A program made the translations under genes and the position numbers. A stretch of DNA of 64,000 nucleotides from Verrucomicrobiota bacterium (GTDB lineage: Bacteria > Verrucomicrobiota > Verrucomicrobiia > Limisphaerales > UBA8199), in the NCBI GenBank assembly GCA_003176045.1, contig PSRM01000234.1:223-64222 (forward strand), given 5' to 3'. Positions 28,771 to 41,472 of the stretch are shown here, piece by piece. Each line of letters starts with the position of its first letter. Position 1 is the first letter of the stretch. The notes beneath the pieces were generated by a model. That model ran no database searches. It was not told the DNA's origin and was given only the letters and a program-made list of their open reading frames with translations.

Positions 28771-29820
28771 CTACGTTTGTTTTTTGACGGAAATGTCTCG
28801 GGCGCCTTCACGGAGGGTGACTATTCCCGGCAACTTTTCCCGGATGCGCCGGGAGAACGCCGGGTCTTTGTCGGCCGCCTTCGCGCGGTCGGTGATTTGA
28901 CTGCGCGCTTTGAGTTCGGCAAATGGGAGAGTCTGATCCAGCGACTTCCGCTCGTAGGCCATCTCGTCAACTCTTGCATTAGCCAGAATCCGCCAGTCGA
29001 ATCGCGCGTTCTTCACGTAGGGCTTGGCCAGTCCACGGATTAAGGTAGTGCAGTTAGCAGTCACGGCATTGTACCACTCCGCCTGGTCCTTGAGGCGGTT
29101 GATCTGTTTCATGTACCCCAAAAACACCTGGCGCGCCACCGCAATGTCTCCGTTCAAACGATACAGATAGACGCTTTCTCCCCGGTAATTGGTGCGAAGC
29201 CGAACGAGATCGCGCTCGTCGCCAACGACGTAGATGAGTTCGAACTGCCGGAAGAAGCCTTTGATGGCGGAGAAACCCTCGCCCTTTTCCTTCCGGGCCT
29301 CGATGGAAAAGCAGACATAGTTGCCACCTTCGAAGCCGAAGCTCAACATGGTATGGGCGATCAACGGCGGGCCCCAACAGCAAACATAAAGGTCCGCTGA
29401 CTGCAGTTTCGCCACGTCGTAAACCCTGTCGTAGTAGCTGACGGTGTAATTGGTTTCACTGAGGTAATCGCAGTTGCGCACGTTGTGGATCGTCACCCGG
29501 TCCCCATTTACCTCAGCGAAGGGCAGCAAGGCCACATCCGGTTGCCAGTCGCGATTGTTGGAAGGAGGTATCAGGAGGAACCACGCGACCACGCCGCCGA
29601 AAAGCGCCAGCAAGACCATGCGGGCCACCCACCAGGGACGCACACGGATCAGAATTCCGAAAAGCACCGCCAAATAAAAGATCGAGGCCAGAGAACGCAT
29701 CCATCCAGGGGGCAGATTTGAATAGTAAACCGCTAGCGTGGACCAAACGGCGAGGCCGGCGAACACCAGTCCCCGCAGTAATCGAAAACCCATCTTCGCC
29801 GTGCGGGTGAGCGCCGACAC
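28771..29820 (-). CDS. DUF4105 (Lnb N-terminal periplasmic domain) membrane protein
   Basis: NRDWQPDVALLPFAEVNGDRVTIHNVRNCDY...HTMLSFGFEGGNYVCFSIEARKEKGE pattern. Confidence 0.75.
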   Translation of the reverse strand: MSALTRTAKMGFRLLRGLVFAGLAVWSTLAVYYSNLPPGWMRSLASIFYLAVLFGILIRVRPWWVARMVLLALFGGVVAWFLLIPPSNNRDWQPDVALLPFAEVNGDRVTIHNVRNCDYLSETNYTVSYYDRVYDVAKLQSADLYVCCWGPPLIAHTMLSFGFEGGNYVCFSIEARKEKGEGFSAIKGFFRQFELIYVVGDERDLVRLRTNYRGESVYLYRLNGDIAVARQVFLGYMKQINRLKDQAEWYNAVTANCTTLIRGLAKPYVKNARFDWRILANARVDEMAYERKSLDQTLPFAELKARSQITDRAKAADKDPAFSRRIREKLPGIVTLREGARDISVKKQT

Positions 29821-29949
29821 GAGCCTTGCCCGGTCCTTCCCGTGGCCGTTCAGTACCTTTGTTTGTTCTGCTTCGATGCTTATTGATGGGCTAAGCCTTA
29901 CTCATGCCACATGCGTGCGTCGGCTGTGCATGATGAGATAGCCGCTCCA

Positions 29950-30515
29950 TTAAGTCACCCGGCAAACGAGAGAACGCTCGGAGTCAGGCGGGCGAACACT
30001 GCTTCGGTAGTTCGTCCCACTACTGAGTCTCGACGGCTTAGCTGTTGCGCCCCATGCAGAGCCTATAGACAATGGACGGAATAGCGTCCCTAGGCCGAAC
30101 TTCCGTCCTGACCTTTTGGCAAAAAGCGAAAAGTTTGCTCTGCTTTCCCCGTAAATTGTGCTTGAGAACACAGGTAGCGGGACAAAAGGTCCGGGAGATT
30201 GGTCATTTGCGGTTCGGTCTTGCAGCCGCAACCCTGCTTAAGACCATCGACCAGGCGCGCGGAAAGTAGCAGCCGGCGATTCAGAACGGACCGCCAGTTA
30301 GGAGTAAGGCCTCAGTCAGAGCGGGGCGGAGCGCCGAACTCCGTTTCGGCGCGTTCGGGAATCCGTGACAGGTTTGCGCCGAAATAGAATTCGGCGCTCC
30401 GTAGCGGCCGTCACTCAAGCAGTCCAGTCAGAAGCAATTTAGTCAGAAGCAATTTAGTCAGAAGCAATTTAGTCTTGCAAAAGCCAGAACCAGGAGCGAT
30501 TCTGGTTTTGGCTTT
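29950..30515 (+). ncRNA. candidate structured non-coding transcript (family unknown)
   Basis: About 700 nt without a credible ORF. A 12-bp hairpin closed by a C(UUCG)G tetraloop at 29988-30018, several further stems, and a terminator-like 12-bp hairpin with a T-rich tail at 30480-30520. Confidence 0.25.
30427..30474. repeat. perfect tandem repeat, 15-nt unit x3 (gtcagaagcaattta)
   Basis: gtcagaagcaatttagtcagaagcaatttagtcagaagcaatttagtc, read directly from the sequence. Confidence 0.95.
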
Positions 30516-30527
30516 TCCTTTGGACCT

Positions 30528-30731
30528 ATGAGAAAGCTGATCTGGGTTTTGATCGCGATGCCCATCCTACTGGCGGGCTGTGGAGGCTTCCACGCCAGCA
30601 AATCCATATCGCCCCTCGACTTCCTCCTTCCCGGCCTCATGCAAAACGACCCCTCGCGACCACCCGTCCCGGAATGCACGAATGCGCCCACGGTGCTGGC
30701 TGCGCAGACCGTGTCAGTCAGTAGTCCGTAG
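30528..30731 (+). CDS. small putative lipoprotein
   Basis: MRKLIWVLIAMPILLAGC lipobox signal peptide. Confidence 0.5.
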   Translation: MRKLIWVLIAMPILLAGCGGFHASKSISPLDFLLPGLMQNDPSRPPVPECTNAPTVLAAQTVSVSSP

Positions 30732-30806
30732 TCAGTGGTCTGTGGTCTGTGGTCTGTGGTCCGTCTTCGGAGGGATTAAGATTAAGAGAAAGATTACGAT
30801 TAAGAG
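30721..30806. repeat. short-word tandem arrays (GTGGTCTG words, then GATTAAG words)
   Basis: gtagtccgtagtcagtggtctgtggtctgtggtctgtggtccgtc ... gattaagattaagagaaagattacgattaagag. Confidence 0.9.
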
Positions 30807-31043
30807 GCGTGTGTATATGTACATCCTCAAAAAGGGCTGCAAGTGAGAGGTGCTCGGTAAATACGGGCTGAAACCGCGTTTTAAAGTGTGCTGCAAGTGT
30901 GCGGCAGGTGTGCTGTGGCTGGGAGGTGTCGGCAAATGCGGGGCGGAATTGGCCTTTTTGAGGGACCTCAAAGTGTGCTGCAGGTGTGGGAGGAATTGAG
31001 GACGTGGAAGTGAGAACGAGGGGCCAGGGGTGCTTCCGAAGCG

Positions 31044-31220
31044 GCGGCGCGCCTACGGAAAGCGCTCATCGTACAGACGAGAAATTCTCACCAGCGCGGC
31101 ACCATACTCTTTGGCGGTGGCGTCATAATCTACCCACTCGAACGCGAAAGGGTCGGTGTTGGTGGCGCGGAAGCGCAGGATCACGAATTCGTCAAAGCTG
31201 GGCCTGGCTCTCGAAACCAA
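31044..31220 (-). CDS. 58-codon ORF or gene fragment, unknown function
   Basis: My translation (TTG start): LVSRARPSFDEFVILRFRATNTDPFAFEWVDYDATAKEYGAALVRISRLYDERFP. Its composition looks coding, whereas the overlapping plus-strand frame is R/W-rich. Confidence 0.25.
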
Positions 31221-31293
31221 TTATTGCTCGGCGCTGGCGGTGCTTGTTGCTGAAAAGTATGGCCTCTCACGGTTTGCTGCTGCAGGATTCTTC

Positions 31294-31906
31294 GATGCGC
31301 TTTCAAGTTCTGGTCAATGAAGAGCCACGCCCGGTAGAACTCGTCTTTGGAGGTGCGCGCGATTTGGCGCTGGTGGACCGGTGGCGAGTTCCTCCTGGGG
31401 TCGCCTCCGGGTCGGGAGCGCGCGACGCACTGGAATTCGCTCGTCTGGCATCAAAGCGTTGGCGTTATTACCGAGAGTCCATTTCTACAGCATCTGACCT
31501 GGAGTCATTCAGGTCAATTCTCCAGCAGCGCCGTGAGTCAGAAATTTCCGTGCTGTTGGTGGTTCGGGCTGATTGGTTCAGTTACTCCCGCATTCTCGGT
31601 CTGGCCCAGTGCCGGCGCACTTACTGCCATCATATCATCCTGGAGTTTCTCGCTGTGCATCCTTCCATTGTCGGGGGCTTACAGCCGATGATTCGCGGTG
31701 TCGGCGCAGGTTTGATCTACAGTTTGGCCGTCCTGGCTGGAGCCGTGGATGTGCCGCTCATTTGGGGTGAAGCGACCGCCTTTTCTGCGCCCTTCTACGT
31801 GAAGACCTGCCGGCTTCCGAAAGTGGAGGACTACTTCTTTCTGCGCAAACGATCTCTGCAATTCTGTCGCGGGCAATTCCGTCGGAAATATTTCGGCGAG
31901 GCTTGA
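31294..31906 (+). CDS. GNAT-like acyltransferase-fold protein (tentative)
   Basis: C-terminal part of the 306-aa ORF. ILEFLAVHPSIVGGLQPMIRGVGAGLIYSLAVLAG...ATAFSAPFYVK resembles GNAT motif A (R-x-x-G-x-G/A) plus the following helix. The start is uncertain. Confidence 0.45.
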
Positions 31907-31937
31907 AATTCTTTGCTAAGAGACGGATACTGAAGCT

Positions 31938-32189
31938 GTGAAAAAGAGAACCGTCTCAAAAGAGGAAATGGTCAGGACTCTCAAAGAGGCTACTGCCTGT
32001 GAGGATTATTTTCCTGGCGTCCTCGGAAATCCGATTACCTTTGCCGCTCGTTGGGGGCTTCCTTTGTCGAAGAGCTATCTCAAGTTCAAGCAACGAGAAC
32101 TGCGAGCCGCCAAAAGGCAGGCGCACAGCAATTCCGCCGGACACAACGGTAACTCGAAAAGGAAGCGCCGCACGGATAAGGTCAGGTAA
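31938..32189 (+). CDS. small basic protein, possible DNA-binding (HTH-like)
   Basis: 83 aa with a GTG start. ITFAARWGLPLSKSYLKFKQRE is followed by a Lys/Arg-rich tail and then a terminator. Confidence 0.4.
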   Translation: MKKRTVSKEEMVRTLKEATACEDYFPGVLGNPITFAARWGLPLSKSYLKFKQRELRAAKRQAHSNSAGHNGNSKRKRRTDKVR

Positions 32190-32225
32190 GGGAGGCTGGC
32201 ATCAAAATCCGAAGATCTCAAATCT

Positions 32226-32265
32226 CCAGCCAACTCCTTTCGGCTGGCCCGTTTTCTATTTTCTA
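32226..32265 (+). terminator. rho-independent terminator
   Basis: ccagcc-aactcctttc-ggctgg followed by cccgttttctattttc. Confidence 0.6.
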
Positions 32266-32311
32266 TTGTCTAATCGCTATTCCCGGGATTTCTCCTCCCT
32301 CACTGCGTGCT

Positions 32312-32372
32312 CCGTAGTCCGTGGTCTGTAGTCCGTGGTCTGTGGTCAGTGGTCCGTCCTCGGTCTGGTCCG
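32312..32372. repeat. short-word tandem array (GTCCGTGGTCTG words)
   Basis: ccgtagtccgtggtctgtagtccgtggtctgtggtcagtggtccgtcctcggtctggtccg. Confidence 0.9.
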
Positions 32373-32648
32373 AACGGTGCGCGGGAAATCTAGCGCCCAC
32401 TCCGCGGCGGGTTCGAGCATGCTCCTGAGCAGGCTTCAGTTTGGATCGCACAAGAACGGTTTAGAGGATAGCAGCAGGGAATTCCAGTAGATTTGCTCAG
32501 CGAATCTCAGGGAATCCTGCACTAGTGGAAAAAACTCGCTCTGGACTCGGCGACGCCTTTTGATCAAGTCCCCGATAACTTGGAAGAGATTTCAGTCACC
32601 GCGAGTGCTTAGATTTTTTACGTTTCAGCGCGGACCGGGGTCTTGTAG

Positions 32649-34406
32649 CTAAACCTCGCGTTTTCGGAGGTGATCATGCACGTCTGAGATCAACCTCCAA
32701 GGCTGTTTGTCCAGATTTACCTCCAAATTAGGTACCAGCTGAACCGCTCGCGTAATCCAGGCGCGCTTATCGGCCTCCCAATGAACTCCATAGTCGCTTA
32801 GGGATGCCTCTAGCTCCCCGGACGGGTTGATAAAGAGGCCAGCAGCACCGCAAATAGCGTAGAGCTTTTCAAACTCAGCGCGAGTGTTTTTCAGCGCCGC
32901 CACTCCGCCTTTCTTCAAAACTTGCCAGCCCGAAGCATCAGCTTTCAATTTTTCTGATTCACGCCGAAGCTGGTCCAAAATCTTTTCCTGAACATTTGGA
33001 TTTCCCGCAAGCGCTGCGTCGGCAGCGGCTTTCATTTCAGAAATTCGCTTTCTTGCCGTTTCCAAGCGAGCCGAAGCAGGTGTAGCCCTTACTTCAGCGT
33101 CGATCTTTTCCCTCGCTTCCTGTGCTTTCGTGAGCGGATCTCCTGTGATTGCAGCAGCCTCAAGCTGTTTATTGAATTCTTCCGGGTTGTTTAGAACGTC
33201 AATATCAACGACGCCTGCACACTCCATTCCGAGCTTTTTATACGCAGCCAAAACTTTCGGCACCGTCTGCTTGTTGTCCGCATTAACAAAATGAAAATCG
33301 AGGCCAGTGTTCACTTTGTTCGACACCAACTGATAGAAACGCGAGTCCGCATCAGCCTCGGTTACTACAACTCCGGAATAAAAGAGGCCATTGAGCACGC
33401 CCGCAGCGCTAAGGAGCGGGTCAGCAGTTAACCTGCGGAGGTCAACCGGATCGAGTGTGTTGACAACATTGTTATCGCCTGCCCGGTCAATTCGGGCTAC
33501 TAAAACATCATTCGCCTTAAAAATAACTCCCCGCAACACATCGGCGCTATGGGTCGCCACGATAACTTGTCGTTCTGGCGACGCTTGAGATGCTATGAAC
33601 TGACCGATGCGAAACGCTTGCGGCGGGTGCAGAAAGGCTTCTGGCTCATCAATTAAGACAACTGGCCGCCGAAGTGTGGTCCGTGCGACGGCTATGCCAA
33701 CGTAACTGCGCAATCCGTCGCCCTGATCATCAAGCCGTTCGCACTTGACAAGGGTGGCTCGAGCGTCCCGTGGATCGGGGGGTAAATTGCTGAAGTCAGT
33801 TCCAACCTTAAAATCCAGCCTCTGCGGGATTGTGAAATCCAACACTATCTGAATTCCAGGGAAAGCCTCCGAAACAATCTGACGAATCTCCAACTCCTTT
33901 TCTCGTCCACTAGCGTAGAGCACCTGAAGCAGATTCGCAGCTTGATGGGGGTCAACGGCGCTTGGCTTCTGCGAAACGAGGCTCAACCGCCCCTCAGTCG
34001 TCAGCATTGCGGGGAGCTGCGCTCCGAAATGGGTCAAGAAATGATCCGGCCGCTTCACAAAGGCGTCAAAATCATCCGGCCATTTTCGAACGGCACCACC
34101 GTAACCGATATTTTGTTCGTCGTGTAGTGTTGGCTGTAAAAATCGAAAATGAGCCTGACCCTCATGATCCAAGATGGGCGAAATTCCGTAAGTGGATTCC
34201 AGTTCCTTCGCATTTTGAGGAAAGTTCGTAAGGGCACGTCCGACCACGAGAACACTCTTATTATTGGTCGTCGTAAGCTTCAGGATGTCTTTCAACGCGC
34301 GACTTTTGCCGCTGTTGTTTGGGCCCACGATCACCGTCAGATTTGGAAGGCTTAAGGTGCTCGAGTCGGAAAAGGTGATCTCTTGGATGCGGTAGTGATA
34401 GGGCAT
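32649..34406 (-). CDS. OLD-family-like nuclease: N-terminal ABC/AAA ATPase fused to a C-terminal TOPRIM-like domain
   Basis: Walker A VIVGPNNSGKS, signature-like DDQGDGLRSYVGI, Walker B VVLIDEPEAFLHP and VATHSADVL. TOPRIM-like Glu (GVVVTEADAD) and DxD (GVVDIDVL), then a coiled-coil of about 90 aa and GLFINPSGELEASL. 585 aa. Confidence 0.75.
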   Translation of the reverse strand: MPYHYRIQEITFSDSSTLSLPNLTVIVGPNNSGKSRALKDILKLTTTNNKSVLVVGRALTNFPQNAKELESTYGISPILDHEGQAHFRFLQPTLHDEQNIGYGGAVRKWPDDFDAFVKRPDHFLTHFGAQLPAMLTTEGRLSLVSQKPSAVDPHQAANLLQVLYASGREKELEIRQIVSEAFPGIQIVLDFTIPQRLDFKVGTDFSNLPPDPRDARATLVKCERLDDQGDGLRSYVGIAVARTTLRRPVVLIDEPEAFLHPPQAFRIGQFIASQASPERQVIVATHSADVLRGVIFKANDVLVARIDRAGDNNVVNTLDPVDLRRLTADPLLSAAGVLNGLFYSGVVVTEADADSRFYQLVSNKVNTGLDFHFVNADNKQTVPKVLAAYKKLGMECAGVVDIDVLNNPEEFNKQLEAAAITGDPLTKAQEAREKIDAEVRATPASARLETARKRISEMKAAADAALAGNPNVQEKILDQLRRESEKLKADASGWQVLKKGGVAALKNTRAEFEKLYAICGAAGLFINPSGELEASLSDYGVHWEADKRAWITRAVQLVPNLEVNLDKQPWRLISDVHDHLRKREV

Positions 34407-34740
34407 AGGATCGCGATCGTTACGCTTTGGGGACGCATTAAGGCGAGGGATGGTGACGACAACATCGTCGGGGTTCTCGGAGGTGTTGCAGTTGGTTGTC
34501 CCAAGCGCTTTGCTGAGGAGAATATTACCGGTGCGGTGTTCGACAAGATCTAATTATGGTCCTCATTGGTCAGCGCCGAGAATTTAAACATGCGGAGGAG
34601 TTCGGGCCACCTCCATCGGAAGGAATTTATTGCGAACCCGACTCCTTAAGAAGCGACGATCGGCGGCTGAACGCGTGTGGATGAAAAACGCAGAAAAGTT
34701 TCAGGTGAGGAAATCCATGCAGGGCGGGGCTCGCGAAATC

Positions 34741-34781
34741 ATAAAAAGGCGGGCTCGGGGCTGGCGCACGCCGAGCCCGCC
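34741..34781 (-). terminator. strong rho-independent terminator (minus strand)
   Basis: An 11-bp GC stem, ggcgggctcgg/ccgagcccgcc, followed on the minus strand by ttttTat. Confidence 0.65.
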
Positions 34782-35125
34782 AAGGGTGGTAAAATCGCCG
34801 AATCCGGCGCAATTGGACTAGCACTAATCATCAAGTTCAGGCGCGTTCTACTGTTAGAAGAGGATACGGGCGAGATCCATGGAACTCGCCCCGAGAACAC
34901 GATCCCGAGTCGTAGGCCATTTAGGCCTTTATTGGCATTCCGATAATATGGGCTTTAACCCGCGCCAGTTCTACCCCACCGGTTTATCACGCCGATTCGC
35001 TTTCGCTTGAAGGGTTGTGTTCTGGACGCTCATTATACTGTAAGTCAAACCGGGCTCGCATTAACAGCCTTCGGCTTGGGCTTTCTGTTGTCCTGTAGAA
35101 TTACCGAACTCAATAGAGGCTCGGC

Positions 35126-35290
35126 TTAGCGTAGTTTCTTGTCCTTTTCGCCGAACTCGAAAGTAATTCCGATTCCGGACTTATAGGTCGCTTTCGTAAT
35201 GCGGCGGGCGAGAATTGTCACCGCGCGTGCGACCGGGACAATAAACAGCACTGCTAATACGCTAATCAGCTGGGCGTTTATTTCTTGCAT
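35126..35290 (-). CDS. 54-aa single-pass membrane protein (hypothetical)
   Basis: MQEINAQLISVLAVLFIVPVARAVTILARRITKATYKSGIGITFEFGEKDKKLR: one hydrophobic helix plus a basic tail. Confidence 0.35.
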   Translation of the reverse strand: MQEINAQLISVLAVLFIVPVARAVTILARRITKATYKSGIGITFEFGEKDKKLR

Positions 35291-35881
35291 AGAAAAGCGG
35301 TTGCAAGCCCCGACTCCCTGCATGTCAAAGAACGTGAGTTTGTGTACAACAGAAGTTCGGGTTTTGCAAGTAAAATTAACTTGAGCGAGGGAGTTCCCTT
35401 TCTTGAGCCAATCTATCTTTATCTTCCGTGAGGAGGGTGACCTGAGTGGCTCCAGGTCGTTTTTCTGTCAGCTGGCTACGACAGCAAATACCGAAGCGCG
35501 CGAAAAGGGGGCCACCCATAGCATAGTTAGGCATGCCGGGGCGCGATTCTACCCGCTTAACCAATTGCCTCTGACATTTCGCGCTTCGAGGCAACAGAGG
35601 ACAGAGGAGAGTCGTCAGTGGGCAGTAGTCAGGCGTCAGTGGCCTGGGGTCGGAAATCAGCCACAGATGACAGAGAACGGAGGACACAGGACAGGTGTCC
35701 TGCTCTAGCGGGCTATAGCCACCGTGAAATGGGAGCTGGCTTGCAGTACCGTGGGATCTAAGATTTGAGATTTAGAATGTCAGAGAGGAAGGAAAACCGG
35801 GTGGGCCCTGAATTCTCGCACGCAGGTTTTTTTTGCCTGCGAAAGATGCGAGAAGGCGCGAAAAGCGAGAGTGAAGAAGCG

Positions 35882-36763
35882 CTACTTGTCCCAAGACAGC
35901 TTCGTCATTTGCGTTAGCTGCGCCATGATTTCTGAGTGACCCGCGATTAACTTGCTGTCCGCGATTATATACAAGCGCTGTTCGTTATGCTTTGCGTCGA
36001 TTTTGGACGTGCTGTAAGGGAGATTCGTCTTAGCGAGCAACTCGTTCACCTCTGGCGGGACCTTTTTCGAAAACCAGAAGACCAGCCTGGACTTGTTTCC
36101 ACCTGCAGTCTCGAGCTTGAGGTATCTCTGACCGTCAATGAGGACTGCGATGTACGAATTGACGTAGTGCAATTCAGCAGTGGGGAAAGTGGGGCTGATT
36201 GCTTCGAGAAGAGCTTTGGAGGTATCAAGCGTGCCGGGCGATTCCTGTCGCCAATATCCTTCGTTGCACTCCTGGTAAACTGATCCATTGGCTGAATCGT
36301 CCGGCTCGTCGTAGGCATCGAGTATTTTTGTAAACAGCAGGGATTTTGCGCCAGCCGTCTCGATAATGCTTGCCTGGATCGCTATTAACGGAATCGAGTG
36401 GCTAAAAAGATGAATTACCTCGAAGAACCTCCGGTTGATGTGTTCCGCCACCAGAACCGCGGAGTGTTGCCGTTGTGGGAATCTTCGCCGTTCCCTGTTC
36501 CAGTATTCAATCGTTCTGATTATGTGGGTCTCGTCTGTTTCCCCAAGCATTACTTCGACTTCATACATTGCGTCGTTATCCGGGTCTTTCAAGAGAATGT
36601 CGAGCCGGCCGCCATGTAACTGGCGCCGCTCTTTGTCCAATACTTCCAGGTCGCCAAAGCCCAAGATCGAGGGATTCTTGCAGATTTGGTCTTGCAGCCA
36701 AACCTCATCATGTCCCAACTCGCGGATTGAAACCGCTTTTGCTATCGCAATGTCGCCTTCCAT
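35882..36763 (-). CDS. NucS/DUF91-like PD-(D/E)xK nuclease-fold protein with an uncharacterised C-terminal domain
   Basis: HDEVWLQDQICKNPSILGFGDLEVLDKERRQLHGGRLDILLKDPDNDAMYEVEVMLGETDETHIIRTIEYW follows the pattern of restriction-endonuclease-like domains (ligand-sensing head, GxxD, ExE/K). Confidence 0.6.
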   Translation of the reverse strand: MEGDIAIAKAVSIRELGHDEVWLQDQICKNPSILGFGDLEVLDKERRQLHGGRLDILLKDPDNDAMYEVEVMLGETDETHIIRTIEYWNRERRRFPQRQHSAVLVAEHINRRFFEVIHLFSHSIPLIAIQASIIETAGAKSLLFTKILDAYDEPDDSANGSVYQECNEGYWRQESPGTLDTSKALLEAISPTFPTAELHYVNSYIAVLIDGQRYLKLETAGGNKSRLVFWFSKKVPPEVNELLAKTNLPYSTSKIDAKHNEQRLYIIADSKLIAGHSEIMAQLTQMTKLSWDK

Positions 36764-36856
36764 ATCTTGTTCCGCTGTGAACTGGACTGATTATGGTCCA
36801 GCGCGACAAAGGGTCAATGCGTTTTGCCTGCTTCGGTGACAGCCTCGATGGAACCA

Positions 36857-37906
36857 TCACTGGTTGTACGAACTGATCACGGTGCCAACCCAGTTTGGGC
36901 TGGTGTTGTCCGGAGATCGGGAGAGGGAGACTTCGGTTTGGTGGCCAAGATCAAACGGGTTACCAAAAGTGCAGCGAAGATAATTGGCACCACCCGCCGT
37001 GTTGTACAACTGGTTTGTGCCGCGGGTGCTCGGGTTCGCGAGGATTATCGAGTCCCAGTATTGGCCTTGGCCGAATTGGATGATGTAGGAGACCACTACC
37101 TGTCCTGGGTTGGCGCTGTTGACTATTCGCCAGCCGTCGGTGGTACCGTCACGTTCAAGGGTCAGTGTATCCGTGCGGGCCACGATGGAGCCAAGCGTCG
37201 AATTCGTGGATTGGATGCGGCGGATGATGAGGCCACGGCCAGCGGGTTCGGCTGTACCGGTTTCAGAGCCTTGGCGGAGGAGGCCGGCGAGTTTGAGGTC
37301 GGTGCCTACGGTCAGGGAGCCTGGGAATTGGCTGCTCCCGGCGGCGTCCAGCGCTAGATTTGCATCAATTTCAAGCTGAGCGGCTGGGCCCAAGCCCGGA
37401 CCTTCCTTAGAGGCGATGGAAGTCTGGCCGCTGGTGTCGCGCAGCATGAATCCGAAACCCGAGCCCCCTACATTGAGAGTTGCAGCTACGGCGGAGGTTA
37501 CGTCAATTGTGACGAAACGCTTGGCTTGGATTTTGGCGGCTGGAGCTGTGCCGATTATGATTGAGTCAGAAGTCGGCATCGGTGTGTTCGTAACAACAGC
37601 TTCAGTCCAGGGCGAAGTGATCGAGGTGGCGACGAGATCGCCAGAGTTGCGCGCGTTCACGATGTAGATTTTGAGCCTGGCGCTTACGATGTTGGTTGTA
37701 TTGAACTGGGCAGGAAGCGAGACGAGGTCGAACTGCAGGAGCGCGGCCTGATTCGCGTTGAGAGTGAGCATGGGTGCTTTCCCGTTGGCTGGGGTCAGGG
37801 CACCGGCGGAGGAAGTGAAGGTGTCTTCCGCAACGGGTAGCGAGATCGCTAAGGCTGAGGCGGTGACAAATGCGGAGATCACGATTGACGTTACGAGGGT
37901 TTTCAT
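36857..37906 (-). CDS. secreted DNRLRE-domain protein with an unknown C-terminal half
   Basis: Signal peptide MKTLVTSIVISAFVTASALA. AEDTFTSS...ALLQFDLVSLP...IVSARLKIYIV...ITSPWTEAVVTN...FVTIDVTSAV matches the DNRLRE pattern. Confidence 0.65.
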   Translation of the reverse strand: MKTLVTSIVISAFVTASALAISLPVAEDTFTSSAGALTPANGKAPMLTLNANQAALLQFDLVSLPAQFNTTNIVSARLKIYIVNARNSGDLVATSITSPWTEAVVTNTPMPTSDSIIIGTAPAAKIQAKRFVTIDVTSAVAATLNVGGSGFGFMLRDTSGQTSIASKEGPGLGPAAQLEIDANLALDAAGSSQFPGSLTVGTDLKLAGLLRQGSETGTAEPAGRGLIIRRIQSTNSTLGSIVARTDTLTLERDGTTDGWRIVNSANPGQVVVSYIIQFGQGQYWDSIILANPSTRGTNQLYNTAGGANYLRCTFGNPFDLGHQTEVSLSRSPDNTSPNWVGTVISSYNQ

Positions 37907-37984
37907 TGTCTGTAAGTGGTTCTTCGGTTGTGGCTGACATATTATTTGGCGGGTCAAGATCCCAAATGGTTGCGACGGCGGTGG

Positions 37985-38272
37985 TTACCGCACTGAGACT
38001 GGCGGCATGTATTTCGCATCGGGAGGCGGTGATTGGTAGTCAATGCGGCCCTTGGATTCTCTTGCGTTGCGAAACTCCAGGACTAGTCGGATCTTCTGCA
38101 TCTCGTCTGCGTGGTCGCGAAAGCAGCGGTAGAACAAGTAAAGCACCCATACCTGGGCCGCGAAGACGATTCCACCGACTACGAAGCCTGCAAAAGCGAG
38201 GTTGCGCAACATGTCTTGTTGCTGCTGAAGCATTTGTTGGTTGAAGCTCATCAGTTGTTGGAAGTCGGGCAT
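37985..38272 (-). CDS. 95-aa single-pass membrane protein with a Gln-rich N-terminus
   Basis: MPDFQQLMSFNQQMLQQQQDMLRNLAFAGFVVGGIVFAAQVWVLYLFY... Confidence 0.4.
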   Translation of the reverse strand: MPDFQQLMSFNQQMLQQQQDMLRNLAFAGFVVGGIVFAAQVWVLYLFYRCFRDHADEMQKIRLVLEFRNARESKGRIDYQSPPPDAKYMPPVSVR

Positions 38273-38389
38273 ACCAATAGACCAGCAGATCGGACGTGTG
38301 GCGTCAAGAGCCTTTCGCCTTGGCCGCGGGCCGTTTATTAGCCGCGCCACAGCGATTGATAGTCAGTGATTCGCGGCCCCACTTTCATA

Positions 38390-38515
38390 CTTTCATACCT
38401 CTTTGCGGCACGGCTCTGGCACGGCTCTGTCAGACCCTTGTCACGGCTTTTGGCACGGGTAAATCGCCAAAAAAACCCAGTAAAATGCAGATTGTCACGC
38501 TGTCACGGCTCAGAC
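38390..38515. repeat. short-word repeat region (CACGGCT words)
   Basis: ggcacggctctggcacggctctgtcag...gtcacggcttttggcacgg...tgtcacgctgtcacggctc. Confidence 0.75.
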
Positions 38516-38564
38516 CACCAGAAGGTCAAAAAGGGTGGCAAAACTGTTCATTAATCCACGATTT

Positions 38565-39944
38565 CTAGACACTTTCAGCTTGCGAGTCGGGAACATACCG
38601 GAGCCAGACTTCCAACAAATCCAGTCTCTCGTACCCTTTCGCGCGCATTTCTGCAGCCCGCAGCGTTTTTGGATGGATGCCGTATGGACGCAACTGATGC
38701 GCAAGCCACAGTTCGTTCAGCTTCTTGCTTCCCATCGCCTCATGCCAGGGCCGCTCCTTGAGCAGGCCCAGAAAATAAATAATGTTCCGGCTGAACAGCC
38801 GCTCCGCCTTGTAATAGCTAAAAGCCCGCAGAACATCCCACAGCAGCGCCCCGATGGGACTCGATTCCTGCGCCATCGCGCTTAAGGCCGTGGCTGCATC
38901 CCGCGCCAGAGCCGGCCAACGGCCACCAGCCACATCCGCAAGCGCCAGCAGGGGGTCCCAGACATCGGCGGCCCGGTCGTTCAAGTCCACGGGGATTTTC
39001 GGCTTCGCCGCCCTGATGGCGCGCGCATGATCGGCGGCGAATCGAGCGCAACGGCGCCGAAGCCCCCCTGCCGACAGGTTGCGCAACCGTTCGCATCGCT
39101 CGCCGGTGCTCTTTCTGTGCATCGTGATCACAATGCAGCGATCTGCCAGCGTCTCGGGCAGCCGGCCAATCATCGAGATGACCTTCGGGCACCAGCACGA
39201 AAACTGCGTCAGCCGGCCGCCGGTCAAATGGGCGAGAGGGGTTGCATGAGGGTCGAGAGCCGTGGGACGAGGGGCGAGAGTTGGATGGCTTTTGACATTG
39301 GACTTCTTGTCCGCCGCAGCTTTAGCGAAGGTGGATGGACTTTGGATCTTGAACTCAGTCAGGAGTCCGTCTTCTGTCCTCTGCCCTCTGTCCTCTGAAT
39401 TCCGCTCCCCTGTCCCTGGTCCGTGGTCCGTACTTGGCTCGGGGACCGAGCGGCCTTCGACTTTGGACTTTGGACTTTGGACTTTGGACTCTCCGAGTGG
39501 TCTCCTTCGTTGACTGGACACCCTTACCACATACGCCGTGCTGCGGGTGTAGCCGGAATTGAGGATGCCGCGCAGTTCTTCGTTGCCCTGGAGGAAGGTG
39601 TCGGCTTCGTCAATGAGTAACGTTGGATGGAGTTCTTCGATGACACGAAACAACGCGGGCGGGCTGATGTTGGCGGCAATGACAGGCCGGTTGACGAGCG
39701 CGTTGAGAATGCTGAGCAATGTGGTTTTGCCACATCGTTTTTCCGGCGACTCCAGACCGATGTAGGTGCTGACTTCCCGCAGTTCGTAGACGTAGGTGTG
39801 CAGGATCCAGAGAGCCAGGGTTTCGGGCGCCCATTTCGGGAGCACGACGAATCGGCGCAGGGTGGCGGCAAGAGCGTCCAGGAGCGCCCCGATTTCGGAA
39901 GTGGAAGGGGTGCAAGGGATTTCTGGCTGTTGATTCGTGTTCAT
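38565..39944 (-). CDS. DUF3631-family P-loop protein (mobile-element associated) with an internal low-complexity insertion
   Basis: Walker A EKRCGKTTLLS and Walker B LLIDEADTF. The C-terminal FSCWCPKVISMIGRLPETLADRCIVITMHRK...DRAADVWDPLLALADVAGGRWP is typical of DUF3631. Confidence 0.7.
   Translation of the reverse strand: MNTNQQPEIPCTPSTSEIGALLDALAATLRRFVVLPKWAPETLALWILHTYVYELREVSTYIGLESPEKRCGKTTLLSILNALVNRPVIAANISPPALFRVIEELHPTLLIDEADTFLQGNEELRGILNSGYTRSTAYVVRVSSQRRRPLGESKVQSPKSKVEGRSVPEPSTDHGPGTGERNSEDRGQRTEDGLLTEFKIQSPSTFAKAAADKKSNVKSHPTLAPRPTALDPHATPLAHLTGGRLTQFSCWCPKVISMIGRLPETLADRCIVITMHRKSTGERCERLRNLSAGGLRRRCARFAADHARAIRAAKPKIPVDLNDRAADVWDPLLALADVAGGRWPALARDAATALSAMAQESSPIGALLWDVLRAFSYYKAERLFSRNIIYFLGLLKERPWHEAMGSKKLNELWLAHQLRPYGIHPKTLRAAEMRAKGYERLDLLEVWLRYVPDSQAESV
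39285..39500. repeat. block of short-word tandem arrays inside the DUF3631 reading frame
   Basis: gactttggactttggactttggactttggact (39459-39490), gtcctctgccctctgtcctctg, ggtccgtggtccgt and ggactttggatcttg, all of which keep the frame open. Confidence 0.85.
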
Positions 39945-39964
39945 AGATTTGTTTTTGGAGAATT

Positions 39965-39998
39965 GTAAAAGAGAAGGTGGGACAAAAACTGTCCCACC
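39965..39998 (-). terminator. rho-independent terminator-like hairpin (minus strand)
   Basis: ggtgggac-agttttt-gtcccacc followed by ttctctttta on the minus strand. Confidence 0.5.
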
Positions 39999-40058
39999 CT
40001 CTTCCGTACGATTACGGATGCGTGGCAGGTCAAATTTTGAACGAAGATCGCAAACGAG

Positions 40059-40082
40059 GAGCGCGGACGCCTTCGTCCGCGC
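40059..40082. repeat. REP-like hairpin ggagcgcggacg-cctt-cgtccgcgc
   Basis: Same head and stem as 27270-27292 (reverse orientation); same stem at 26021-26038. Confidence 0.8.
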
Positions 40083-40365
40083 GGGCAGTCAGAGGGGATT
40101 AACCACGCATCTGGTCGTACTTTGTGTTCACCATTGCTGTTGAGCTACCCGTCGCTACGAGCGACTGATCTCGCTCATGCCTGGGTGGTACGTCGAAACG
40201 CATCGCAACGAGGTTGAACAGGACATCCGCGAAAACGCCGAGGCCTGAGCATGGCCTTGCTCTGCGCTGTAATTCTCAGGGCGCGTCATCCGCCGGCCCC
40301 AGACGTAACTTGGCCCGGCGCAGCCGCGGTTTCTCTCCCTCGACCCTCGACCCCGACCCTCCCGC

Positions 40366-41472
40366 TCAATCCTTACTCACGCGCCACGTCGGATCCGGAT
40401 CGTAGATGGTCATCTTCCGCGCAACTTGCTCGGTCTTTGGGCCAAGGTCCTTCTGATAAACGCGGCCTTGCTGGTTGACGATGAAGGTCATGATGCCGGA
40501 TTCGCCGTACTCGGCGGGCCAGGCGACCAAAGCGAAACCGGCAATCATATTTCCGTTGATGATGTACCCGTACTTGCCGCCGGGGGCGTGGGTGCCCTGT
40601 TGGGTGAGGATTCTGAAGTAATAACCATGGAACGGCTGAGGTTCATCTGTGATTTTGCGAAAGTAACCTCCGCTCTGAGCTTCTGCGACCATCGGCCCCA
40701 GCGGACTGACTTGTCCGTTTAACTCTGTCGGCCAGTAAAGCCCATCCGTTTTGCCAGGCGAACTGGCGATCCGTTGTGCGTACTTCAAAACGCCGTTACC
40801 ACTGCGGTCGCGGCTTGCGTATTCGCGTTGTGCGTCCACGTAAGCCCGCACGGCTTGGAGCGCTTCAATTTCGTTCCGGCCGATGCGGCGGTTGAGAACC
40901 TCCTCACGGCCGGCGGCGCTGTCGAAGAACCAGCCATCGGCCGTTTTCACGATAGGAACGGGGAAAGGCCAGTTGTCGTTGCCCACCTCGAGAATCATTT
41001 GCGTATCGGACTTGCGGGCCAAATGGTTCGTGAGATTAAAAGCGGCCGTAAACTCTGCCAGGTCTTGGGCACCCTGTACGGTATCAGGATTTGCCAGCCA
41101 TTCGCCTTCTGGTCCAAAAAGAACGGCGAAGGCCGCTTTGTTCGTGGTGTTGACCGCCTGGCCCAGCGAACTGACCAGCTCTTGCGGAGAGGAGAACGTC
41201 TTGGCGCTACCGGCGCGCGCTGTGATTCCGGACATCGTGCCGGCGATAAGAATCAGTACGCCGCCCACGGTGGCGCAACGTAGCGAAGATTTCCAATCTG
41301 CGGTATCGCAGTGCTTCCAGCCTGCGAGGCGGAGGCTCTCTGGTGTTCGGACGGTCTGCCGATTGGAAATCGGCGATACAGCAGGTTGGAAACCTGCGCT
41401 ACTTTTCGTCCGAAGTGCCCGTTCGAAATGAGTTGTCGCAACTAAATCGTTCTGAAAAAAAGAAGTAATCAT
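40366..41472 (-). CDS. DUF2950-family secreted protein
   Basis: FHGYYFRILTQQGTHAPGGKYGYIINGNMIAGFALVAWPAEYGESGIMTFIVNQQGRVYQKDLG is the characteristic C-terminal block. The true start is probably internal. Confidence 0.7.
   Translation of the reverse strand: MITSFFQNDLVATTHFERALRTKSSAGFQPAVSPISNRQTVRTPESLRLAGWKHCDTADWKSSLRCATVGGVLILIAGTMSGITARAGSAKTFSSPQELVSSLGQAVNTTNKAAFAVLFGPEGEWLANPDTVQGAQDLAEFTAAFNLTNHLARKSDTQMILEVGNDNWPFPVPIVKTADGWFFDSAAGREEVLNRRIGRNEIEALQAVRAYVDAQREYASRDRSGNGVLKYAQRIASSPGKTDGLYWPTELNGQVSPLGPMVAEAQSGGYFRKITDEPQPFHGYYFRILTQQGTHAPGGKYGYIINGNMIAGFALVAWPAEYGESGIMTFIVNQQGRVYQKDLGPKTEQVARKMTIYDPDPTWRVSKD

Follow-up and report, generated by a model that had tools for sequence, protein, structure and literature searches.

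A probable Class 1 OLD-family nuclease with an enlarged helical module inside its TOPRIM domain, in an accessory island of a Verrucomicrobiota genome

Class 1 is the least understood class of the OLD-family nucleases. It is defined by context, as an isolated gene (PMC7049728; PMC10568477), its members have a length of about 500-600 amino acids (aa) (PMC12392090), and phenotypes are available for P2 Old, the Vibrio cholerae protein (Vc OLD) and Escherichia coli YbjD (also OldB) only. These three differ in trigger, substrate and domain requirements. The Thermus scotoductus enzyme (TsOLD) and Vc OLD act on DNA and P2 Old cuts tRNA stems (PMC12445682; PMC12392090), and Vc OLD and YbjD/OldB show that phages can be restricted by a Class 1 OLD on its own (PMC12392090; PMC13261556). 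Here we analysed a 64,000-nucleotide (nt) stretch of contig PSRM01000234.1 (positions 223 to 64,222 of the forward strand; GenBank assembly GCA_003176045.1, Verrucomicrobiota bacterium), called the window in what follows, and within it a gene for an ATPase-TOPRIM protein at 32649-34406 on the minus strand. We hold with good confidence, short of certainty, that this gene encodes a Class 1 (solo) OLD-family nuclease of a P2-Old-like branch, in which an ABC ATPase is fused to a two-metal TOPRIM domain.

A sequence-only reading of this DNA had started from the open reading frame (ORF) at these positions. The ORF is real and encodes 585 aa, but its strand had gone unstated: it lies on the minus strand with an ATG start, as given by the ORF list and the translation, and the plus-strand frame over the same interval holds many stops. 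The ATG is a credible start because homologue alignments begin at residues 1-3. All the motifs quoted in that reading were found in the translation, and their conservation excludes chance. The parts of the gene are the following.

32649-34406, minus strand: complete OLD-family ATPase-TOPRIM gene, stop codon at 32649-32651; homologues align from residue 1-3 to about residue 580.
33417-34406, minus strand: N-terminal ABC-type ATPase region (residues 1-330), with Pfam AAA_21 and AAA_15 matches and fold matches to SMC/Rad50 heads and TsOLD.
34302-34325, minus strand: Walker A motif (P-loop) GPNNSGKS (residues 28-35), with K34 invariant, aligned to GPNGAGKT of TsOLD.
33705-33719, minus strand: signature-like motif DGLRS (residues 230-234), inside a conserved DDQGDGxRS block.
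33624-33656, minus strand: Walker B motif and following loop, LIDEPEAFLHP (residues 251-261), with D253 and E254 invariant.
33546-33557, minus strand: H-loop ATHS (residues 284-287), with H286 invariant and aligned to H332 of P2 Old.
33189-33386, minus strand: TOPRIM core strands 1-3 (residues 341-406), with E350, D354, K379 and D401-x-D403.
32844-33188, minus strand: helical insert between TOPRIM strands 3 and 4 (residues 407-521), as placed by AlphaFold2 models.
32805-32843, minus strand: TOPRIM strand 4 and distal acidic block GLFINPSGELEA (residues 522-534), with G530 and E533 invariant and E531 at 92%.
32652-32804, minus strand: C-terminal helices (residues 535-585), with K547 and W550 near-invariant.

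Conservation and motif spacing were measured on an alignment of 213 full-length relatives. Nine residues (K34, D253, E254, H286, E350, D354, D401, G530 and E533) do not vary among the 213; K379 and D403 are kept by 212, and E531, K498, K547 and W494 reach a conservation of 92% or above. The residue preceding G530 is variable (C, V, T or A). Around the signature-like motif, D226, G229, D230 and G231 are invariant in the family alignment. Since the catalytic residues are near-universal among these relatives, the enzyme appears to be catalytically intact and under selection.

The ATPase region includes an inserted non-core region, like that of other OLD proteins. Its Walker B segment LIDEPEAFLHP aligns to IIEEPEMYLHP in TsOLD and IDEPELYLHP in P2 Old, and the P2 Old mutant H332A, altered at the counterpart of H286, has lost ATP-dependent cleavage (PMC12445682). 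The TOPRIM motifs are VVVTEADAD (residues 346-354), VVDIDVL (399-405) and GLFINPSGELEASL (523-536). When the family profile was aligned to TsOLD (PDB 6P74), E350/D354/D401/D403 fell on E377/D381/D431/D433, the metal-A/metal-B ligands whose mutation abolishes cleavage (PMC7049728). The metal-A ligands E350, D401 and D403 and the metal-B ligand D354 are present in the protein. D354 also aligns to P2 Old E402, which, like H332, has been tested experimentally (PMC12445682). The distal acidic block matches GIYIWKSGDIEA of P2 Old (SGELE versus SGDIE). Its E531 and E533 may be the equivalents of the TsOLD metal-B ligands S478 and E480, and K547 is a candidate equivalent of TsOLD R487 and BpOLD K562.

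Profile searches pointed to the same family. Pfam AAA_21 (9e-15) and AAA_15 (1.6e-12) both matched above their cut-offs. The best PADLOC model was Old (5.4e-23), over residues 172-473 and reaching through the TOPRIM core; the PADLOC models for GajA, AriA/AriAB, PtuA and the retron ATPase-Toprim scored lower and mostly around Walker B only. No NCBIfam model came near its cut-off. A profile made from 50 family members found TsOLD at 4e-9, its best sequence-profile match in the PDB, and P2 Old (AF063097) was matched by BLASTP at 1e-9 and by hhalign with a probability of 96%.

The fold was compared with an AlphaFold2 full-length model, built with a 50-sequence alignment (predicted local distance difference test, pLDDT, 92.7; predicted template modelling score, pTM, 0.88). 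Foldseek against the PDB placed TsOLD (6P74) first at 1.2e-10, followed by OLD chains of retron-Eco8 at ranks two to six and by GajA; heads of SMC/Rad50 matched by fold through the ATPase alone. Because the global template modelling (TM) score of the full-length protein was low, the C-terminal 252 residues were folded separately, with an alignment from the fetched loci (pLDDT 91.8). The sole matches with a Foldseek probability of 1.0 were the C-terminal regions of the OLD proteins BpOLD (6NK8), XccOLD (6NJW) and TsOLD (6P74), and AriB of PARIS was a weaker fold match (0.51-0.69). The C-terminal half is a TOPRIM region, as the sequence-only reading had held, and in the structural comparison that it had proposed, against OLD, GajA and AriB, the OLD structures came out best, GajA lower and AriB weak.

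P2 Old, the archetype of Class 1, has 586 aa against 585 here. Both are single genes with the same motif order, in keeping with the likeness in size and layout noticed from the sequence and with Old as the best PADLOC model. The two proteins have in common the distal S-G-[DE]-x-E block, K379, K498, K547 and an insert between the DxD motif and the distal block, with an identity of about 23% over residues 174-407. Unlike prophage-borne P2 Old, the gene described here is chromosomal, and its host is an uncultured environmental bacterium. P2 Old has a RecBCD-linked trigger and tRNA-Thr(UGU) as its target (PMC12445682), and neither can be assumed for this protein.

TsOLD, the best full-length fold match, is likewise a solo gene of Class 1, and its four TOPRIM acidic ligands and its ATPase motifs align. 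TsOLD has about 45 residues between the DxD and the S-x-E (D433 to S478), without the 'Insert 3' helix and without a C-terminal helical domain (PMC7049728), whereas the protein here has about 125 residues in that interval and two further C-terminal helices, and the global TM score of the pair is 0.36-0.40. The Class 2 proteins BpOLD (6NK8), XccOLD (6NJW) and GajA (8SM3) carry helical TOPRIM additions too, including between helix 3 and strand 4. They differ by their GajB/UvrD-like helicase, which is found beside neither the gene here nor any homologue, and with about 40 bits or less, mainly on the ATPase, the PADLOC models for GajA fall far short of the Old model. Class 2 (Gabija GajA) was rejected because no helicase domain turned up among the neighbours, either here or at the homologous loci. 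Vc OLD and YbjD/OldB have the same solo-gene ATPase-TOPRIM architecture, a likeness drawn from their descriptions. Vc OLD needs both domains and the YbjD TOPRIM domain is dispensable; because their triggers and requirements differ, no specific behaviour can be transferred from them to the protein here.

The protein is another Class 1 P2-Old-like OLD that departs from the studied examples solely by a larger, fast-evolving helical module. In the model, TOPRIM strand 3 spans residues 396-400 with the DxD motif next to it, and strand 4 spans residues 524-526 with G-E-x-E next. The stretch between the DxD and the distal block is predicted to be helical (pLDDT 82-96). Helices at 402-406 and 408-417 precede three long helices of about 20 residues each (422-440, 444-466 and 470-490), with 3-residue turns between them, and two short helices (495-504 and 509-521) follow. 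A coiled coil of about 90 residues had been proposed at this site. A helical insert does lie there, in an interval of about 125 residues, but it is modelled as a compact module of antiparallel helices rather than as one long, continuous coil.

The spacing from D403 to G530 has a median of 127 residues in the full-length relatives (range 78-138), and the corresponding interval in P2 Old is 84 residues. The three-helix segment (residues 418-492) has a median of 75 aa in the family versus 25 aa in P2 Old. No other part of the protein is conserved so little: the segment has on average an identity of 0.19 to the query, versus 0.47 in the TOPRIM core with its flanks and 0.41 in the ATPase. The evolutionary rate of the module is more than double that of the catalytic cores. 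The proportion of charged residues is higher in the segment, 0.34 versus 0.26. A distant Corynebacterium relative does without most of the three-helix segment and keeps the core blocks. W494, K498 and G501, in the helix after the module, and K547 and W550, after strand 4, are near-invariant and common to P2 Old.

At the same site the 'Insert 3' helix is present in Class 2 OLDs and in topoisomerases and is absent in TsOLD (PMC7049728). Since P2 Old and the Class 2 OLDs already have inserts there, the insert enlarges a known variable site and is no new feature. The elaboration is common to a large family that is already annotated generically, several members being named 'ATP-dependent nuclease' or 'ATP-dependent endonuclease' by NCBI. 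The variable three-helix module could form a surface that sets trigger, substrate or partner specificity, or that serves regulation, and the conserved helix that comes next (W494, K498) probably supplies K498 to the active-site region. A bolder proposal, which we put forward tentatively and regard as doubtful, is that the three-helix module is a swappable specificity or sensor module that chooses the phage cue or the nucleic acid to be cut (DNA or a particular tRNA stem). If this were true, the branch would be a natural series of re-targeted solo OLD nucleases, with the short-insert relatives (P2 Old and the Corynebacterium-type proteins) as the minimal state.

The family was gathered by an exhaustive search of representatives clustered at 50% identity. 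It comprises 2896 clusters at E<=1e-3, of which 1151 remain at E<=1e-30; most are aligned end to end, and the members are mostly 555-620 aa long; the 585 aa of the protein here fall inside the length given for Class 1. Among the named genomes with a member are Nostoc, Anabaena, Microcoleus, Dapis, Planctomycetota, Acidobacteriota, Burkholderia, Sphingomonas and Corynebacterium; the branch is frequent among Nostocales, Acidobacteriota and Planctomycetota. The phyletic spread is patchy and the identities do not track taxonomy.

In the all-against-all comparison of neighbouring ORFs at 34 loci, the OLD protein itself was the only common family, besides families limited to the local synteny of closely related Nostoc genomes. 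Three further metagenomic contexts were all different, and the closest homologue (69% identity) is flanked by UbiD and unrelated housekeeping genes. Domain searches of the window neighbours found no helicase, reverse transcriptase or DUF4435, in agreement with the earlier statement that no adjacent GajB helicase or DUF4435 partner is present. Without a conserved neighbour in the 34 loci, the gene is therefore Class 1 (solo) by the context-based definition. Together with the OLD profiles and folds and the aligned catalytic residues, this bears out the sequence-only reading where it had offered a class-1-like solo OLD nuclease.

The gene is accessory DNA that moves alone between genomes. Its accessory nature follows from a dip in GC (guanine plus cytosine) content, a DUF3631 neighbour, the patchy spread, pseudogenes, carriage on a nifD element and some defence-gene neighbours. 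In the window, the GC content is 0.51-0.53 across 32-37 kb, a dip of about 5 kb, versus about 0.575 elsewhere. The OLD gene lies within an accessory block of orphan genes of about 10 kb, between housekeeping blocks: one flank holds cydAB, an Lnb_N protein and a phosphoketolase, the other DUF2950, DUF3300 and Mla-like genes. A DUF3631 protein (4.5e-39) is encoded on the right-hand border of the orphan block, at 38565-39944 on the minus strand; DUF3631 is a domain typical of integrative and mobile elements. No integrase and no tRNA gene were found in the window, a repeat search gave short-word arrays and no convincing att sites, and none of the island neighbours was assigned to defence by PADLOC, NCBIfam or PHROGs.

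Elsewhere in the family, split, frameshifted or truncated copies were seen in Anabaena sp. WFMT (L011:6004-7770), a proteobacterial metagenome-assembled genome (MAG; L028:5995-7757), Cylindrospermum NIES-4074 (L024:6172-7245) and a Terriglobia MAG (L033:6061-6519), the L numbers being those of the fetched loci. These copies fit a dispensable accessory gene. A Nostoc homologue directly follows an integrase-like (XisA-type) gene and lies beside NifD/NifK-type genes (L008:4499-5806 with L008:345-3860), and the same arrangement of integrase and NifD/NifK is found in L006, L009, L010 and L015. This position next to integrase-like and NifD/NifK-type genes makes the Nostoc copies part of the cargo carried by the nifD excision element. 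In Nostoc sp. LEGE 06077 (L018:7808-9283) a gene for an NB-ARC/NACHT-type STAND nucleoside triphosphatase, a common defence-type architecture, is immediately downstream of the OLD homologue. About 7-11 of the 105 pooled neighbours match PADLOC models of other defence systems (MADS, type I restriction endonuclease, SspE/GmrSD-like, AbiTii and DolB), with no recurrent family among them, and we claim no enrichment from these counts.

The mechanism can be proposed by analogy with the studied enzymes. The protein would self-associate via the region inserted in the ATPase, as TsOLD does, and would be inactive in uninfected cells, as suggested by P2 Old, TsOLD and Vc OLD. A phage-derived cue might lead, through ATP binding or hydrolysis, to licensing of the two-metal TOPRIM site, which would cut double-stranded nucleic acid so that the infection is aborted. 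The substrate could be DNA, attacked by nicking or exonuclease action in the manner of TsOLD and Vc OLD, or it could be tRNA stems, the target of P2 Old. The analysis establishes how the protein is built, that its catalytic residues are intact, that its fold is that of OLD proteins and that the gene is solo and mobile; for genome annotation the outcome is a probable anti-phage nuclease, encoded by a single gene within a small accessory island.

Several points weigh against this assignment. The Pfam domain OLD-like_TOPRIM (residues 341-403) reached 21.6 bits, below its gathering score of 23.2; in precomputed matches many close homologues pass it. The structural scores are modest, with TM scores of 0.36-0.41 for the full length and 0.38-0.47 for the C-terminal region, and the best Foldseek E-value of the C-terminal region was just 3.7e-3. 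The modest C-terminal scores fit a conserved TOPRIM core with a large helical addition that has no PDB match. A tblastn search of 50,697 phage records gave one weak match, to the AAA ATPase of a mycobacterial prophage (27% identity), and the branch is therefore not typically phage-borne, unlike P2 Old. The pairing of E531/E533, K547 or K498 with TsOLD S478/E480/R487 is putative, and the defence role, the trigger and the substrate are all things that we infer by analogy. An OLD-family protein need not be defensive, since archaeal Cran1 acts in the cell cycle (PMC12796447), nor need the TOPRIM domain be the effector, that of YbjD being dispensable for its phenotype (PMC13261556).

The case of Cran1 raises the possibility that the protein is an OLD ATPase with a non-defence role in DNA repair, genome maintenance or the cell cycle, and that the module is an SMC-like interaction arm. 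The ATPase resembles the heads of SMC, Rad50 and RecN by fold, some homologues lie among housekeeping genes, and OLD members with non-defence roles exist (PMC12796447; PMC13261556). We nevertheless consider such a role improbable, because the distribution is patchy across phyla without following taxonomy, several genomes hold pseudogenised or truncated copies, and the gene is carried by a low-GC island here and by the nifD excision element in Nostoc. The module, moreover, sits inside the TOPRIM domain, after a complete ATPase, and not between the ATPase lobes as in SMC/Rad50. A housekeeping ABC ATPase of the SMC/Rad50/RecN type, which would have overturned the original proposal, was rejected on the position of the module within TOPRIM and on Pfam SMC_N, which reached 24.7 bits versus a cut-off of 40; the patchy spread and the pseudogenes agree.

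The protein could instead be the sensor-effector of an island-specific multi-gene system, as the sequence-only reading had also entertained, together with neighbouring orphan genes or an RNA: the candidate partners are a 293-aa PD-(D/E)xK-like protein, small membrane ORFs and an RNA from the gap at 34407-35881. Such a system would suit the position of the gene in the block of orphans and the 1.5-kb stretch upstream of it, in which there is no convincing ORF. It is nevertheless highly unlikely, since no island gene recurs with the OLD family: no island neighbour was found beside any of the 33 other family members, and the closest homologue has its own, housekeeping surroundings. The cross-genome context at the 34 loci thus lends the multi-gene proposal no support. 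The OLD gene is also divided from the upstream genes by a strong hairpin with a T-run:

34741-34782, minus strand: hairpin and T-run (GGCGGGCTCGG...CCGAGCCCGCC TTTTT), about 335 nt upstream of the start codon, read from the sequence.

A simple consensus scan for terminators did not list this hairpin. It is likely a terminator that insulates the OLD gene from the upstream minus-strand genes. Translated in every stop-to-stop frame, the gap of about 1.5 kb had no Pfam match, and an Rfam scan of 29500-41000 with permissive thresholds returned a chance microRNA match only. A decayed helicase, reverse transcriptase or AriB partner in the gap was rejected on these all-frame Pfam and Rfam negatives. 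The gap could be decayed DNA or hold an uncharacterised RNA.

Least credible of all is a fused PARIS-like (AriA-AriB) or retron-type (Class 3) OLD effector with its partner lost or hidden. In its favour are matches to PADLOC AriA, AriAB and ATPase-Toprim_I-B and to the NCBIfam retron Eco8 effector, and the second to sixth fold ranks of the retron Eco8 OLD chains. Against it, those profile matches are limited to the Walker-B region of the ATPase (about 225-320) and far below the family cut-offs, AriB is a weak fold match, and no reverse transcriptase, retron RNA or DUF4435 was found in the window or in the homologous loci. Class 3 was rejected with no reverse transcriptase and no Rfam match in 29500-41000, and with 33 bits for NCBIfam Eco8 versus a cut-off of 250. 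Class 4 (PARIS) was rejected with no DUF4435 match in Pfam, a PADLOC AriAB match that covers residues 248-309 alone, and AriB at 0.51-0.69 versus 1.0 for OLD. The resemblance to fused AriA-AriB suggested from the sequence does not hold, as it amounts to that stretch of the ATPase and a weak AriB fold match.

With the protein taken as a solo OLD nuclease, the branch is a large and uncharacterised one in which all the catalytic residues are kept and a module conserved in length but variable in sequence lies inside the nuclease domain. Together, members with long inserts, relatives with short ones and P2 Old form a tractable comparison set for the specificity and activation of solo OLD enzymes.

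Some minor observations were made on the gene and its surroundings. The reading frame is open for 49 codons 5' of the ATG, up to 34553 (32649-34553, minus strand); this extension is probably untranslated, because homologues begin at the annotated methionine. No obvious Shine-Dalgarno-like sequence precedes the ATG. The 293-aa orphan (35882-36763, minus strand) has an N-terminal PD-(D/E)xK-like pattern (RLDILLKD...YEVEVMLG). It had no match in Pfam, PADLOC, NCBIfam or PHROGs and is not beside the OLD homologues in other loci.

Tandem 7-nt arrays (GTCTGTG / GTCCGTA and variants) were seen at 30704-30784, 32297-32377, 35608-35660 and 39359-39411, in intergenic positions apart from one array inside the DUF3631 gene; two of the arrays bracket orphan ORFs of 306 aa and 110 aa (30986-32331). 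In the ORF-free region left of the island, at 30417-30474 and 30327-30401, lie three tandem 15-nt units (AAGCAATTTAGTCAG) and a 26-nt inverted repeat, 88% complementary, which resembles repetitive extragenic palindromic (REP) elements.

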